Assembly (NCBI GenBank): GCA_027343225.1
Contig: DAHWMK010000022.1
Coordinates: 6,849 to 70,848 of the forward strand
Reading direction: 5' to 3'
From: Thermoplasmatales archaeon
Lineage (GTDB): Archaea; Thermoplasmatota; Thermoplasmata; Thermoplasmatales; GCA-001856825
Length of the DNA stretch: 64,000 nucleotides
Numbering within the stretch: position 1 is the stretch's first letter; the number at the start of each line of letters is the position of its first letter. The notes beneath the pieces are model-generated. The model searched no databases, was not told the origin of the DNA, and worked only from the letters and a program-made list of their open reading frames with translations. Of this stretch, positions 32,559 through 39,441 are shown piece by piece. The translations under genes were made by a program, and so were the position numbers.

Positions 32559-33416
32559 ATGTCGCCCCTTGAACTCCTTTTGATTTTCCTGATTACCCTT
32601 GGATTTTCAGGGGCGATACCCATCGCGAAGGTAGGGATCAGCAGTTCAGACGTGCAGGGGTTCACCGCCATTTACATCACCGGAATAGTATTCACAATGT
32701 TTTTGGAGCAGATGATCTTCATACCACTGAAATATTCGTTCGTTTCTTTCGGTTCTCCGGTCTTTGTAATAGTCATTGCAGGTGCGGTAGGTGCATTTGG
32801 ATATCTCTCAGGATATGCCGGCATGAAGAAAGTACATGCAGGAATATCCAGTACAGTATTCAATCTACAGGGCCCACTAATATTGTTGTTTGGAGCTTTA
32901 TTTACTTCTATTTACCCTGGGAATATGATCACTCTTGGACTGATAATTTCTCTTGTCGGAATCATACTGATAGGGTCCTCTAAGGTCAATCTGAAGAACA
33001 TTGCACTTGGATTTCCTTTCATTTTCGTAGTCCTGGCCCCAATACTATGGGCACTGGAATGGGTATTTTTTTCAACAGTCTCTGGCAAAGATCCAATATT
33101 CTTTACGTTTCTATTGTACCTGACTGCCTGCTTAGTTACCCTTGCCATTAGCTTAGGCCGAAAGACGCTGTTCACTGTTTCCAAGAGGAATGCAAAGTAT
33201 GCATTCGTTGGAGGTGCTCTTGCCGGAGTTGCTAATGCATCTTACGGAATTTTCATCACCAACTTTGGCACTGCGCTAACGGGTATAGTAACCATAATCT
33301 CTGTTCCTGTATCGGTATTGTTGGTAATAGCGGTTCTCCACGAACGGTATTCAAAGAGCGAGATTCTTGGATTGATTGTTACTGGATTGGGTCTCGGAAT
33401 TGCGTTGATTCTTTGA
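32559..33416 (+). CDS. EamA/DMT-superfamily transporter
   Basis: 285 aa with about 10 TM segments in a two-half organisation. Confidence 0.7.
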   Translation: MSPLELLLIFLITLGFSGAIPIAKVGISSSDVQGFTAIYITGIVFTMFLEQMIFIPLKYSFVSFGSPVFVIVIAGAVGAFGYLSGYAGMKKVHAGISSTVFNLQGPLILLFGALFTSIYPGNMITLGLIISLVGIILIGSSKVNLKNIALGFPFIFVVLAPILWALEWVFFSTVSGKDPIFFTFLLYLTACLVTLAISLGRKTLFTVSKRNAKYAFVGGALAGVANASYGIFITNFGTALTGIVTIISVPVSVLLVIAVLHERYSKSEILGLIVTGLGLGIALIL

Positions 33417-33624
33417 GATACCAGATGATCCAACAAAAGAAGAATGGACCGTGTCAAGCAGAAGGTCCTCAAATGCGATGTTCAAGACCAACGACTGTAC
33501 TGAAAATAAAAGTCCACACTCACATCAGATGGATGGAGAGTAATAAGGGACAAACATTGTGCCCTAACACCGACGACTGGATTCCAGGTATTAAAGCTAT
33601 AATTAAATTAGGAGAAAATAGAAA

Positions 33625-33671
33625 GACTATAGAGGATTACCAATAACCCTATAAATTTTCTATGATATGCA
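33625..33671 (+). repeat. Repeat copy A (47 nt): GACTATAGAGGATTACCAATAACCCTATAAATTTTCTATGATATGCA
   Basis: About 85 percent identical, with one 1-nt gap, to the reverse complement of 36796-36841. Its outer about 22 nt also match 35513-35536 in reverse complement. Confidence 0.8.
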
Positions 33672-33751
33672 TCTTTGTCTGATTGAGGTCATAAGAAATA
33701 CCGTTATTGCCCTGTACTTACCTCAATTTCCTGCACATTTCCTTCTATTTT

Positions 33752-34813
33752 TCAGCTGACTGGGATAGCTGAAGCTATCTTACCCCTCCTTTTCAGGGAC
33801 AATAAGTTGAAAAGATTGTGGCCTAGGCACATGAACATAGACTTAACCCTCACCCTCGGGACCGTTGTGACGAAAGTGTGTCCTCCACGGAAGGTCCTTT
33901 TCATCACGGAATACGGTCTCTCACCCCTCGACCTCTTCCTCGTTATCCTTAGATTCCTCCTTATGGATTCTATAGGAAGCTTGTGCCCTCTTACAGCTCT
34001 GTCCATCGTAGCATCAATACCCCTACTCTCGACTCCGAAATACGCTTTGTCCTTGTAGTTCACTATTTCTGGGATAGAGAGGTCCCTCTGGGAGTCGTGG
34101 ACAGATGCAGTGGTAACTGCGTAGTTTGCTATCATATCGTTCTCCACCCCCTGAATTGTGTGAAGCTTGTAACCGAAGTATGACCTTGAATTCTTCTCAG
34201 TCCAGCTCCCATCCTTGGACCTTCTTGACAATGAATGCTTCCTTTTGTCTATCAAGGCAGACTTCACTTCATTCTTTGTCTTCTTTTCAGGGCCGGGATA
34301 ATCCTTCCCACTGCTGATAGGAGGCATCTGCGGATCGACCATATAGGGCTTCTCCTTTCTCTTGTGACCAGGATCGGAAGTGATGAATGTTGCGTCTTGA
34401 ATTGTGCCGTTCCTCACCGTTATGCCCTTCTCCCTGAATTGTCTCCATATCTCCTTCCACAGTGCTTTTTCCTTGCCAGTCTTGGACAGCCTCTCCCTGA
34501 AGAGCCATATCGTGTTCTGGTCCGGCACACTTTCAGGGTAGTCAAGGAAGTTGACGAGCCTTACGCTGTCATATATCTCCGTCTCCATCGACTCATCAAC
34601 GATGTTGTAAATTGATTGCAGGAAGAGTATCTTCACCATCAATATCTCATCGTAGTTCGGTCTCCCTCCCTGCTCAGTGTCGTTTGTAAAAAGATCCTTG
34701 AGCATAGGTCTCAGGCTCTCCCAGTCTATGACGTTCTTGATTTCCGCAAGCTTATCTCCACGCTTCTTGAGCTGCTCGTACCTCTATCTGAGGCCATAAT
34801 TCACCAGGTCCAT
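33752..34813 (-). pseudogene. IS5-family DDE transposase with an in-frame TAG at codon 10 (34784-34786); an intact 317-codon ORF remains from ATG 34705
   Basis: GGRPNYDEILMVKILFLQSIYNIVDESMETEIYD (the InsH N-terminal domain) is present. So is the DDE region: DATFITSD..., NYKDKAYFG, RGERPYSVMKRTF. Upstream, in the same frame, the sequence reads ATG(34813) MDLVNYGLR-TAG-RYEQLKKRGDKLAEIKNVIDWESLRP-M(34705). This segment looks like genuine N-terminal coding sequence. Confidence 0.75.
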
Positions 34814-34903
34814 AGAGAATAATAGTGGCTCCATGAATAAGCATTATTGAAACCAGGTTTGGTAGATATTGGATTTTTTGAAATGTTCAACAGTTACCGC
34901 GCT

Positions 34904-35314
34904 TCATCGATGCTCCGTCACATTTGCTGAACTCTTGGGGTATGAAACCATCAGGATGTAAAGAAAGAATGTAACAATTCCAATCAACAAAAGATCGGTC
35001 CCAAGAAGGACATCTAAGATTCCTACAAAAACCAGAAACAGTTCTACTGCTGAGAGAATAGTTACAACGACACTGAGAATCGAAAACCTCTTTTTGATTG
35101 TTTCTGTAGGTGTCGAATAGCTTGCTTTCAGCACTCTGTCTCTCTGAACGTACAGATCAACACTCAAAAGACCAAGAATCACCCCTGCTACAAGGAACCA
35201 GTACCTCATGATGCCGGAAATTAGAACAGCTTGATAGAATGTGATAGCAATAACAATCAACATAATGACCAGCAGTCCGATATATTCCTCACGTTTCTTT
35301 TTAATGTTATCCAT
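34904..35314 (-). CDS. Small membrane protein (4 predicted TM), unknown function
   Basis: 136-aa ORF with four hydrophobic segments. It lies between the transposase and repeat copy C. Confidence 0.45.
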   Translation of the reverse strand: MDNIKKKREEYIGLLVIMLIVIAITFYQAVLISGIMRYWFLVAGVILGLLSVDLYVQRDRVLKASYSTPTETIKKRFSILSVVVTILSAVELFLVFVGILDVLLGTDLLLIGIVTFFLYILMVSYPKSSANVTEHR

Positions 35315-35512
35315 AGCTTGTTAGACTTCCTCTTTCTATACATCTTAGGGTAATATTTACACCTTGGAAAGGAAATAAAACTACGCTTATAGTTCTCAAA
35401 GCAATTTCCATATTGGTTTTTTTGTGAGCATACCGAACCGTATTTCATAATAGTCAGATATTTGAAAGCTTCTCTTTGTTTAGCCATCTTAAATCTATTA
35501 GTCTTTAGTGGG

Positions 35513-35536
35513 GGGGTTTGGAAATCCTCTATATAG
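35513..35536 (-). repeat. Repeat copy C (partial, about 22-24 nt): GGGTTTGGAAATCCTCTATATAG
   Basis: It matches the outer end of copies A (reverse complement) and B (GGGTT[AT]TGGAAAT[A/C]CTCTATA) with one mismatch and a 2-nt gap. Confidence 0.6.
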
Positions 35537-35619
35537 AATTTTAGTTATAAAATTTTAAATATTTATTTTCAGTGGCGTCCTCAGTGGTTAAAATGCCAGA
35601 AAATCATGACAGGGCTCAG

Positions 35620-36640
35620 ATGAGGATTATTGGGCTCGAAGAACACTACAGTATTCCGTCTCTTTTAACAGCCGACTACAGTTTTCCGTCCCTTATAAAA
35701 GCCACGGGAAAAGATATTACGAACCTTATTCAGGCAGGGTCTTCTCCCGGTGTTAGGACGTCTTGAAGAACTTTTTGAAAAGGCAGTAGATATTGGTGAG
35801 AAGAGAATATTGGAGATGGACAGAGTGGGAGTTAATGTCCAGGTTCTATCTCTATCCTCGCCTGGGACAGAACAGATGGAGCCTGATAAAGCAGAAGAAG
35901 TGGCTGTCGAAGTTAATAACATGGTTGCAGATTCTATTAGGAAGTTTCCTTCCCGCCTATCTGCTTTCGCAGCGTTACCCACATCTAATCCTGTGAGGGC
36001 AGCGGATGAGCTGGAAAGGACAGTTAAAAAGTTGGGATTCAAAGGTGCTCTTATTAATGGGCATGTCCGTGGAAAGTACCTTGATGATCCAATATTTGAC
36101 CCGATATTCGAGCGTGCAGAAGCTCTTAAAGTCCCTATCTATTTACATCCGACTATGCCTCCAAAGCAAGTTTCAGATGTATACTATAATGGCAATCTGA
36201 GACCAGAAGTCAGCTTAATCTTTTCAGTGTTTGGCTGGGGATGGCACATTGAAACTGCTGTACATCTGCTCCGTCTCATTCTAGCAGGCACTTTTGATAA
36301 ACATCCTGAACTGCAGGTGATGATAGGACATCTTGGGGAAGCATTACCCTTCATGCTTGACAGGTTAGATCAATCCTTCCCTCCCAATTTCACAGGACTG
36401 AAATACCCAATAAGTCATTATTTGAGGAATAATATGTATTATACGAGTAGCAGCCTTAACTCGTTACCATCATTCCTAAACCTAATGTTACAAGTTGGAG
36501 TAGACAGAATCATGTTTTCTACCGATTACCCTAATCTACCTATGGGTTTGTCTGTAGATTTCTTGAAAAAGCTACCAATAAGCCCAAGCGACAAAGAAAA
36601 AATCTCGTATTTGAACGCATGTAATTTAATGCACTTTTGA
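35620..36640 (+). pseudogene. Amidohydrolase-2 family (ACMSD / gamma-resorcylate decarboxylase-like) gene split by a frameshift between 35699 and 35763
   Basis: The N-terminal MRIIGLEEHYSIP (family-typical xIxLEEHF start) is in one frame and ends at TGA 35764-35766. The rest (LGRLEELFEKAVDIGEKRILEMDRVGVNVQVLSLSSPG...FSTDYP) is in the +1 frame, which is open from 35699. Confidence 0.65.
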
Positions 36641-36795
36641 TCCTCTACAGCAATTCATATTGATTTTATTAGTCCTTACTAATATTTATATTAAATAGCA
36701 TTTTTATTTTCTTCATATTTTCACCGACTTCAGACGATTTTACAAATTTTAAGTCCTTCTCAACAGAACTTATGTAAACAATCTTAATTTTAGAG

Positions 36796-36841
36796 TGCAT
36801 TTATAGAGAATTTATAGGGTTATTGGAAATACTCTATAGTC
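36796..36841 (-). repeat. Repeat copy B (46 nt): TGCATTTATAGAGAATTTATAGGGTTATTGGAAATACTCTATAGTC
   Basis: Inverted relative to copy A. It carries its own internal 7-bp inverted termini (TATAGAG...CTCTATA). Confidence 0.8.
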
Positions 36842-37231
36842 ATTGTTTGACCCAGATACTATCAGCAAAACAAGGATTAAGTGCTTCATTTAAACGAGAT
36901 CGCAACACTCAGACCTATCTTAAACCTGATTTTCTTTCTTTTCAGTAGCGGGCAAGATTTCCATCAGTCCCCTAAAGTTTATCGAAGAGGTAATAAGCGT
37001 TCTGAGAGTTAAGGCCAATAACCACATTTTACTACTATTTCTCCAATACAACCGAATTAGATCCCTGATTGATCAAGAGAGAGTAATGCGCCCATACGAA
37101 TTGAAACCATTTTCAGAAAATCTATTTAGATGTGATGAAATTTACTAAGAACAGTTAAAGTATAGAATTTTGTCCACTAAATATTGTATTCATTGAATAA
37201 TCTTATTATACTTCAATTGTCATACATCATT

Positions 37232-37684: not shown

Positions 37685-38470
37685 TCATGATTGTTCCCTA
37701 AGCAGTTCTGCTAGCCTTCTCGATTTCTCTGCCACGTCCCCCTCTATAAACACCTTCTTTCTTTTCGAAGGTGTTATTTCATTAAGTCCTCGCACAAATG
37801 TGAAAGAACCCTTAATGCCTGTTACCTCTTCCCTCAGACCGAGATTGTTTGAAGACCACACCGTTAGATGGAACTGGGAGATCGCCCATTTCATCCTTTT
37901 GAAATCCGGAAATCGCGGCTGTACCGCTCCCATCTCAATGCTTATCATTGCAGGGAGGGAGGTCTCAACTGTCTCGTGTCCTCCCTTTATTCTTCTCTGT
38001 ACCTTTAGTTTGTCTGCATCTACCTCAACAGAGGTGGCAAACATGACTTGCGGTATGTCTAGAAACTCGGCAATTTGTCCTGGTAACTGCCCAAGAGCAG
38101 CATCTGATGACTCCTCACCTGCCAGAATCAGGTCATAGTCTCCTATTTGAGCTATGGCAGTTGACAGGACGAGTGCTGTTGGATAGGTATCCGCCCCCCC
38201 AAAATTTCTGTCCGAGAGGAGAACAGCGTCGTCTGCTCCCATAGCTATTCCAAGTTTAAGGAAGTTCTCGAACAAAGGAGGACCCATGGAGATAAGAATC
38301 ACTCTCCCTCCGTGTTTCTCCCTAATCCTCAAGGCAATCTCGATTGCTGTTTTGTCAGCTTCGTTTATCTGGTTCTCAGCCTTACTCCTGTCCAGTCTCT
38401 TCGTCACGGGATCAAAGATGATGTTTTCTGACTTCGGGACTACCTTCAAACAGACGATAATGTTTCTCAT
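37685..38470 (-). CDS. etfB: Electron transfer flavoprotein, beta (small) subunit
   Basis: MRNIIVCLKVVPK...INEADKTAIEIALRIRE...GADDAVLLSD is the canonical EtfB N-terminal pattern. It overlaps etfA by 4 nt. Confidence 0.9.
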   Translation of the reverse strand: MRNIIVCLKVVPKSENIIFDPVTKRLDRSKAENQINEADKTAIEIALRIREKHGGRVILISMGPPLFENFLKLGIAMGADDAVLLSDRNFGGADTYPTALVLSTAIAQIGDYDLILAGEESSDAALGQLPGQIAEFLDIPQVMFATSVEVDADKLKVQRRIKGGHETVETSLPAMISIEMGAVQPRFPDFKRMKWAISQFHLTVWSSNNLGLREEVTGIKGSFTFVRGLNEITPSKRKKVFIEGDVAEKSRRLAELLREQS

Positions 38471-39441
38471 CTTTTTTCCTCCAGTCTCTTGATGACGGCG
38501 GGAATTATCTCAGAAACATCCCCCACCACACAATAGTCAGAGTGGTTGAATATTTCTGATTCCCTGTCTATGTCAACTGAGATAACAGTCCTACAGTCCC
38601 TTATGCCTGACGTGAAGTGTTCAGAACCACTCACGCCCAAAATTAGAGTAAGCTTGGATTTCAAAGAGTATCCAGTGGTTCCAACCTGCAGTTCCCTAGG
38701 GGCTATTCCTTTGTCGGCTAGTGGTCTCGTAACACCCACATCCGAGTTAGTGAGTTCAGCAAGCTTCCGTACTAGTGAAATGTTTCCTCCGATTCCGTTC
38801 CCTCCGACGATAGTTCTCTCAGACTTCGTGAGGTCCTTTGATTTCGTGACCTTTCTTTCGATTACTCTTACCCTGTCTTTCACGGATGAAAGATCAGGTA
38901 CCACTTCAACGATTTCCCCCTTCCTGTTCTGATCATAGACCTTTGTAAATGTACCTGGCCTAACTGTGGACATCTGTGGACGAGCCTTCTCGCAGATGAT
39001 TTCAGCCATTATTTTACCCCCATATGCCGGAACGCCAAAAACGAGAAGCCCCTCCTCGTCCATCTCTAGATTGATGGCGTTTGCGGTTAGACCAGTTCGG
39101 AGTCTTGCTGCAAGCCTACCAGCAAGGTCTCTGCCGTAGTAGGTCGCACCTATCAGAAGAGCAGTTGGAAATTCAGATGAGGCTAGATCAAAAAGGGCCT
39201 TTGAGTACAGGTCATTCGAATACTCATTGAGCCTTTCGTGTTTTAGCAGAATCACTTTGTCAGCTCCATATCTGATAATATCCTGCAACTCTCTCTCTTC
39301 AGAGGTACCGAGCACAATAGCTACGATTTTATATGGAGAGGACTTTGTTATCACATTCAATTTACCTATAATTTCCAGAGACACATCCTCTATCTCGCCT
39401 TCGCTTCTTTCGACCACTACCCATATTTCTTTCCTTGTCAT
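38467..39441 (-). CDS. etfA: Electron transfer flavoprotein, alpha (large) subunit
   Basis: C-terminal FAD-binding region ...VGGNGIGG...GVTRPLADKGIAPRELQVGTTGYSLKSKLTLILGVSGSEHFTSGI. 324 aa with no N-terminal ferredoxin domain. It overlaps the upstream gene by 4 nt. Confidence 0.9.
   Translation of the reverse strand: MTRKEIWVVVERSEGEIEDVSLEIIGKLNVITKSSPYKIVAIVLGTSEERELQDIIRYGADKVILLKHERLNEYSNDLYSKALFDLASSEFPTALLIGATYYGRDLAGRLAARLRTGLTANAINLEMDEEGLLVFGVPAYGGKIMAEIICEKARPQMSTVRPGTFTKVYDQNRKGEIVEVVPDLSSVKDRVRVIERKVTKSKDLTKSERTIVGGNGIGGNISLVRKLAELTNSDVGVTRPLADKGIAPRELQVGTTGYSLKSKLTLILGVSGSEHFTSGIRDCRTVISVDIDRESEIFNHSDYCVVGDVSEIIPAVIKRLEEKR

Follow-up and report, generated by a model that had tools for sequence, protein, structure and literature searches.

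The DNA analysed here is a window of 64 kb (64,000 nt) from contig DAHWMK010000022.1 of a Thermoplasmatales archaeon. Within 3.2 kb of it, three copies of a terminal-repeat-like sequence (A, C and B, from left to right) accompany an IS5-type transposase gene, a 136-aa membrane open reading frame (ORF) and a frameshifted amidohydrolase gene. This arrangement raises the question which of the ends belong together and what they have moved. The locus is likely to represent three layers of one IS5-family insertion sequence (IS) from an uncultured Thermoplasmata archaeon. The first layer is a canonical 1257-bp IS with an intact end A, a decayed left-type end and a transposase gene broken by a nonsense mutation. 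A longer segment, 33632–35529, would be the mobile unit, bounded on its far side by a good 20-nt left-type end, copy C. The third layer is copy B, a 44-nt right-type relic from another copy, 1.3 kb further downstream. The same locus is present in several assemblies, including ERZ27237019 k141_484031 and GCA_027373945.1. The comparison loci are named L009 to L054.

A and B form a genuine inverted repeat, as an earlier note on this DNA had reported. A repeat search pairs the arms 33622–33663 and 36803–36844 over 42 nt without a gap (90% complementary), and with one gap allowed the match covers 51–54 nt at 87–88%. Repeat, core and end-consensus counts were taken over the whole window. The 18-nt core shared by A and B, CCAATAACCCTATAAATT, occurs exactly twice (0.07 expected). 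The end consensus GAGGATTWCCAATAACCC, searched with up to three mismatches, has three sites (33632, 35512–35529 and 36817–36834; 0.14 expected), all of them confined to the 3.2 kb. A dispersed repeat of the repetitive extragenic palindrome (REP) or miniature inverted-repeat transposable element (MITE) type, considered earlier as an alternative, does not agree with only three copies in so small a part of the window. The short third repeat, which had also been recognized, lies at 35512–35533 in the same orientation as B. The boundaries first assigned to the repeats have to be moved inward by 7 nt. The repeats themselves begin at 33632 (A) and end at 36834 (B), and the outer GACTATA and TATAGTC are flanking sequence. 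Because these seven bases were counted as repeat, the target-site duplication was overlooked and none had seemed convincing. A perfect TATA is present at 33628–33631 and 35530–35533, and again at 36835–36838.

The limits of the canonical IS were obtained by comparison with related copies. Searching the genome collection with the transposase gave 21 loci, all in metagenome-assembled genomes of Thermoplasmata or Thermoplasmatota. Homology of the window to the copies L009, L010, L011, L013, L017, L020, L027 and L049 (the last obtained separately via the transposase homologue P0140) is limited to the segment from 33626/33632 to 34864/34884, with 80–86% identity at the DNA level. The flanks differ from copy to copy and bear no relation to each other. 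The window and L049 both have an IS of 1257 bp; that of L054 measures 1265 bp. Consensus ends were built from the aligned ends of more than ten copies. More than eight copies carry the end sequence GAGGATT(T/A)CCAATAACCC on both sides. The left-type end (left inverted repeat, IRL), upstream of the transposase gene, has the consensus GAGGATTTCCAATAACCCCTATA; that of the right-type end (right inverted repeat, IRR) is GAGGATTACCAATAACCCTATAAATTTTCTAC. Perfect 4-bp duplications (ATGT, TATT, ATCA, TTTA and AATG) border five of the eight complete canonical copies. Independent support for the IS limit comes from the assemblies: five Logan k=31 contigs running in from the side of the neighbouring EamA gene all stop at 33659/33660, about 29 nt inside the IS, and this puts the boundary of the repeat at 33631/2.

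The IS's own left-type end at 34865–34888 is decayed and had been missed. An IS with alternative right ends, one of the explanations offered in the earlier note, is essentially right for the A–C segment, which recurs elsewhere with C as a substitute end; the canonical IS itself ends at 34888. Termini closer to the transposase ORF in other copies, named in the earlier note as a refuting observation, are indeed found for the canonical IS. The 1.9-kb A–C segment had been taken for the IS and actually consists of the 1257-bp IS and captured DNA. Assembly breaks and the many near-identical members of its cluster point to a multi-copy element. The 21-nt right-end pattern has no match in the JGI metagenomes.

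Derivatives of the IS are present among the comparison loci. In L025 (3328–3776), a MITE-like form of about 450 bp with an internal deletion retains both ends and has a perfect TTTA duplication. Truncated copies in L024 and L026 retain only the right-type end. Matching target duplications are missing from two irregular copies, one with an internal deletion and an insertion of about 1.5 kb (L022 3468–5561) and one with about 130 extra nt (L013 4416–4548), which suggests nested events or recombination between copies.

The transposase assignment is corroborated by profile matches to NF033581 (180.5 bits, cutoff 140), PF05598 (DUF772) and PF01609 (DDE_Tnp_1), all above cutoff. The TAG at codon 10 replaces a residue that is Glu (GAG/GAA) in 11 of the 11 closest full-length homologues (353–360 aa, at most 88% identical). 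TAG is an ordinary stop in the window, where it terminates 12 of 47 long ORFs. Accordingly, the codon-10 TAG is a nonsense mutation. Some Thermoplasmata (Methanomassiliicoccales) use pyrrolysine, and on this general background the TAG could be decoded and the gene be intact. With Glu in every close homologue and with TAG in regular use as a stop, that reading is extremely improbable and was rejected.

The ends A and C probably delimit a mobile unit in which the IS, together with captured DNA, uses a substitute outer end. The comparison that carries this starts from the 136-aa ORF, which is a membrane ORF, as described before, is hydrophobic, has no family match and is situated between C and the canonical IS. 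In 1.84 billion representatives, a full HMMER search detected only one relative with 93% identity (P0260) and one weak match. P0260 is encoded at a second locus (L050–L053, four assemblies), again directly upstream of an IS5 transposase gene. Positions 33631–35434 of the window align continuously to L050 1360–3167, and 35438–35530 align to L050 365–457. The alignment crosses the decayed inner end and the junction, which reads gcggtaactgtt followed by GAAC in the window and gcggtaactgct followed by GAGC in L050. Identity drops to background exactly outside C and A, and the flanks are unrelated. Since A–C recurs at another site with different flanks, C is a substitute end. The decayed inner end and the junction are common to both loci, and the decay is therefore ancestral to the A–C unit. 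The L050 version of C, GAGGATTTCCAAAAACCACC, matches the IRL consensus at 17 of 20 positions. Neither copy has an intact transposase gene (in L050 it is split into 72 and 277 aa), so the A–C unit is non-autonomous.

The second locus contains about 900 nt more than the window; this extra DNA holds most of a 102-aa ORF and a 272-aa ORF whose N-terminus is signal-like. The window copy is thus a version of a 2.8-kb element with a deletion of 0.9 kb. In the full cassette (L050 454–1890) the 272-aa protein also has a hydrophobic C-terminal half, and it is accompanied by the 102-aa protein and the 136-aa membrane protein with four segments; the ends of these ORFs overlap. The passenger ORFs have no match in Pfam, PADLOC or PHROGs. 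From the layout of the unit (outer left end, cargo, inner left end, transposase, right end) we infer a former direct-repeat composite of which the upstream IS survives only as its outer end. Contig starts at 35326–35467 were considered as an alternative arrangement and were ruled out, as these contigs are identical to the window.

The similarity between the window and L050 is uneven. Identity is 94.5% in the passenger and 91% in the 92 nt next to C, and only 79% in the IS body. Compared in 100-nt segments, the IS body is most similar to the canonical copies L049, L009 and L010 (86–93%) up to about 34790; the last approximately 100 nt of the IS, toward 34888, are closest to the L050-type element. 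This mosaic is most readily explained by gene conversion with another IS copy in the same population. It fits the contig stops on the right side, where two k=31 contigs end at 34739 and several assemblies break at 34679–34784.

Several observations weigh against A–C having moved as such a unit. The need for gene conversion, given 79% identity in the body and 94.5% in the passenger, complicates a history in which the unit moved as one piece. In the window, the canonical IS has no target duplication (TATA at one end, AACA at the other), and the L050 unit is flanked by TCAA and TTAA, a duplication at three of four positions only. C resembles an IS end convincingly over only about 20 nt, and further IS-derived sequence is equivocal. 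The unit is known at only two sites, both with broken transposase genes, which makes recent mobility uncertain. Furthermore, TATA adjoins all three ends in the window but not a single one of about 12 ends elsewhere, so that some of the TATA evidence may reflect shared history rather than independent duplications.

Table 1. Features of the IS5-family locus, in coordinates of the 64-kb window.
Feature	Position	Strand	Basis or remark
Lineage-specific block, 3.65 kb	33449–37098		absent from syntenic relative
TATA, left target-site duplication, directly outside end A	33628–33631		
Canonical IS5-family insertion sequence, 1257 bp	33632–34888	−	comparison with related copies
Probable A–C unit, 1898 bp; passenger-carrying, non-autonomous IS derivative of the transporter-IS type; second site known	33632–35529	−	
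Copy A: intact right-type terminal inverted repeat (IRR) and subterminal sequence on the 3' side of the transposase gene; begins GAGGATTACCAATAACCCTATAAATTTTCTA	33632–33674	−	
IS5-family transposase gene, 353 codons, TAG at codon 10 (34784–34786)	33752–34813	−	
Decayed IRL of the IS, GAACATTTCAAAAAATCCAATATC (consensus GAGGATTTCCAATAACCCCTATA)	34865–34888	−	end alignment
Passenger ORF, 136 aa, four hydrophobic segments, near-orphan	34904–35314	−	
Deletion junction, about 900 nt extra in L050	35434–35438		loss between short direct repeats (microhomologies)
Copy C: outer left-type end of the passenger-carrying unit, GAGGATTTCCAAACCCCCCC	35510–35529	−	
TATA, right target-site duplication of the A–C unit	35530–35533		
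Amidohydro_2 pseudogene	35572–36640	+	frameshift at about 35700–35735; in-frame 30-nt tandem duplication 35645–35703
Copy B: solo right-type (IRR) end relic, inverted relative to A	36791–36834	+	
TATAGTC flank of B, mirrors the GACTATA flank of A	36835–36841		

Copy B matches the right-type end including the subterminal sequence, and weak homology may extend inward to 36772, giving a length of 44–63 nt (88% like A). For B, the suggestion of an IS plus a solo end was correct. Its outside flank, TATAGTCATTGT, mirrors the flank of A at 11 of 14 bases, a feature absent from all other copies. The sequences directly inward of C and of B resemble each other only weakly.

The amidohydrolase gene upstream of B belongs to Amidohydro_2 and is frameshifted, in agreement with the earlier description: the conserved N-terminal motif MRIIGLEEHY is in one frame and everything from about 35732 in the next. 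The two copies of the tandem duplication at 35645–35703 are 86% identical and repeat 10 residues (HYSIPSLLTA and DYSFPSLIKA). The closest foreign homologues are only 62% identical. The gene was found at this locus only; neither a second copy nor another amidohydrolase cassette bounded by inverted repeats was detected anywhere searched. Right after the middle TATA, the sequence 35534–35551 (TAGAATTTTAGTTATAAA) weakly resembles the IS end in A orientation, with 8 of 18 positions matching, including six of the first eight. A fourth end in very advanced decay is one possibility, and the other is simply an AT-rich promoter belonging to the amidohydrolase gene.

The region between the EamA gene and a 106-aa ORF differs among relatives. 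A relative with an 85%-identical EamA has the same gene order and only 172 nt in this gap. Nucleotide homology of the window to this relative stops at 33416–33448 and resumes at 37099–37111. In a second relative, an aldose-1-epimerase gene occupies the spot. Three states are thus found (window 33417–37231, L030 7859–8030, L037 7721–9050): an empty gap of 172 nt, the aldose-1-epimerase gene, and the IS block of 3.65 kb. The gap looks like a local hot spot of gene turnover.

A comparison with orthologous loci had been proposed in the earlier note. The block is absent from the syntenic relative, and no empty site with matching flanks was found; the intergenic region of the syntenic relative is not collinear with the immediate flanks. 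These flanks (33449–33631 and 36835–37098) gave no BLAST match against all sequences retrieved. They show weak collinear similarity to the aldose-epimerase locus of L037 (z of about 2–2.6), with the peptide pairs KLGENRKT/KSGDNSQT and ATLRP...FSSG/VTLRP...FSSC*. The block probably sits in the remnant of an aldose-1-epimerase gene of which about 565 nt are missing. A strain without A–C (site AGAAAGACTATATAGAATTTTAG) or without A–B (site AGAAAGACTATAGTCATTG) was sought by exact-protein look-ups with four queries, namely EamA, transposase, membrane ORF and amidohydrolase; all contigs either had the arrangement of the window or broke off. There is no tRNA gene or Rfam match near the block, and PADLOC, PHROGs and Pfam searches of the region and the passenger ORFs gave no match. 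The EamA protein has no relatives in the JGI metagenomes, so that this collection does not include the lineage. Further downstream, on the minus strand (37685–43978), a conserved cluster encodes electron-transfer flavoprotein beta and alpha, a CCG-domain iron-sulfur protein and an FAD/ferredoxin/FlpD fusion of 1128–1138 aa; it is syntenic in all relatives examined.

How B became part of the locus can be explained in different ways. A and B may be the ends of a 3203-bp composite transposon (33632–36834) with A–C as its left arm, the amidohydrolase gene as cargo and an inverted IS, reduced to B, as its right arm. It would have inserted in one piece into a palindromic GAC TATA GTC and duplicated the TATA. 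A and B are of the same right type and inverted, which is the geometry of an inverted-arm composite. TATA stands outside both ends, with flanks mirrored at 11 of 14 bases, the whole block is absent from the syntenic relative, and the amidohydrolase is an orphan in the lineage with a best foreign match of 62%. This history is nevertheless doubtful. A second copy of the 3.2-kb unit or of the amidohydrolase was found nowhere searched, and the right arm is not an IS copy, B being a relic of 44–63 nt with 88% similarity to A. The TATA also follows the internal end C, which makes the duplication of a composite ambiguous. The new target would have to be TATA by coincidence, and none of six other targets of this IS is TATA. 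Moreover, the flanks 33449–33631 and 36835–37098 are not contiguous in relatives, with about 565 nt of the presumed epimerase gene missing. All three TATAs and the mirrored flanks are accounted for, with A–C kept as a unit, if a B-ended segment carrying the amidohydrolase gene (35534–36834) entered GAC TATA GTC with duplication of the TATA, and A–C later inserted exactly into the left TATA and duplicated it again. The 18 nt after the middle TATA, weakly similar to an IS end (8 of 18; six of the first eight), would then be the other end of that segment. This similarity is not significant by composition (p of about 0.06), and B is well preserved by comparison. Insertion at one exact 4-bp site is required, and another amidohydrolase cassette bounded by inverted repeats was not found. 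We consider this sequence of events rather unlikely.

B and C could also be unrelated leftovers of old insertions, or members of a dispersed MITE/REP-like repeat, with the shared flanks and the association of A and C due to chance. This IS family commonly has truncated copies in which the right-type end alone is kept (L024 and L026), and L025 has the 450-bp MITE-like derivative. For C, this is largely refuted by the second site, where the A–C unit is found again and its boundaries are exact. The 64 kb contain the end sequence just three times, within a stretch of 3.2 kb, and the chance of a 7-nt identical flank is about 6e-5. As a whole, such an origin is improbable. The mirrored flanks of A and B may also be due to chance or to an inverted duplication.

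The layered origin from one IS5-family IS suggests the following history. As the IS's own left end is degenerate, the mobile unit would be the longer segment 33632–35529. Most likely C once formed the outer end of an earlier IS copy, which lay upstream in direct orientation and was otherwise lost. The captured cassette would originally have held three ORFs for secreted or membrane proteins (272, 102 and 136 aa), of which the 0.9-kb deletion left the 136-aa ORF. The A–C unit would have inserted into a TATA about 40 nt upstream of the amidohydrolase gene and duplicated it. Because both known A–C copies are without an intact transposase, an intact canonical IS copy must have acted in trans. B would either form, together with A, the ends of a 3.2-kb composite that brought the amidohydrolase gene, or bound an older insertion whose TATA was re-used by A–C.

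The IS belongs to the IS5 subgroup of the IS5 family (ISfinder classification; NCBIfam NF033581). It resembles other members in its single DDE transposase with N-terminal DUF772, its length of about 1.26 kb, terminal inverted repeats of about 20 bp, 4-bp duplications, multiple copies, and truncated and MITE-like derivatives. It differs in coming from an uncultured Thermoplasmata lineage, with the closest full-length transposase at 88% identity, and in the defective state of the window copy. In Thermoplasmatota, IS elements belonging to many families are common (PMC13343696).

Transporter IS, i.e. IS copies with passenger genes, and mobile insertion cassettes have been described by Varani et al. 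2011 (PMC3129680). The A–C unit is comparable in carrying passenger ORFs unrelated to transposition between terminal repeats and in occupying more than one site with target duplication; by analogy, it may be mobilisable by a cognate transposase. Unlike transporter IS, A–C retains the decayed inner end of the IS, as expected of a former direct-repeat composite whose upstream IS was cut to the outer 20 nt, and its transposase gene is broken in both copies. Tn5 and Tn10 are compound (composite) transposons with inverted IS arms. A and B are similar to these in being outer ends of the same type, inverted around cargo, with a 4-bp direct repeat outside. The locus deviates from them in its right arm (a 44-nt relic), in the lack of a second copy and in the internal end C with the same flank, which makes the duplication ambiguous. 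Solo inverted repeats and partial IS copies are known as scars of past IS events (PMC3129680). B is such an isolated terminal fragment without transposase, but its flank mirrors that of the neighbouring intact end, which a simple scar does not need. All parts of the locus fit described categories, namely an IS5-family IS, a non-autonomous derivative similar to a transporter IS, and a solo end; it is no new kind of system.

A broader interpretation is tentative: this archaeal IS5 lineage may repeatedly build cargo transposons from a good end and a substitute or relic end, and an A–B composite may have delivered a foreign amidohydrolase gene and the membrane-protein cassette to the hot spot. If true, this composite would directly exemplify how an IS imports genes in uncultured Thermoplasmata.

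The general understanding of transposon function is unchanged by these findings. For a common IS5-family element of uncultured Thermoplasmata, they establish the exact ends, the length of the duplication and the derivative forms. This aids annotation and accounts for the places where contigs of these metagenome-assembled genomes break off. Between the EamA gene and the 106-aa ORF lies a variable spot for which related genomes show three states. With its two independent sites, the A–C unit illustrates how, in an archaeon, genes beside an IS whose own end has decayed can be moved by way of a substitute end.

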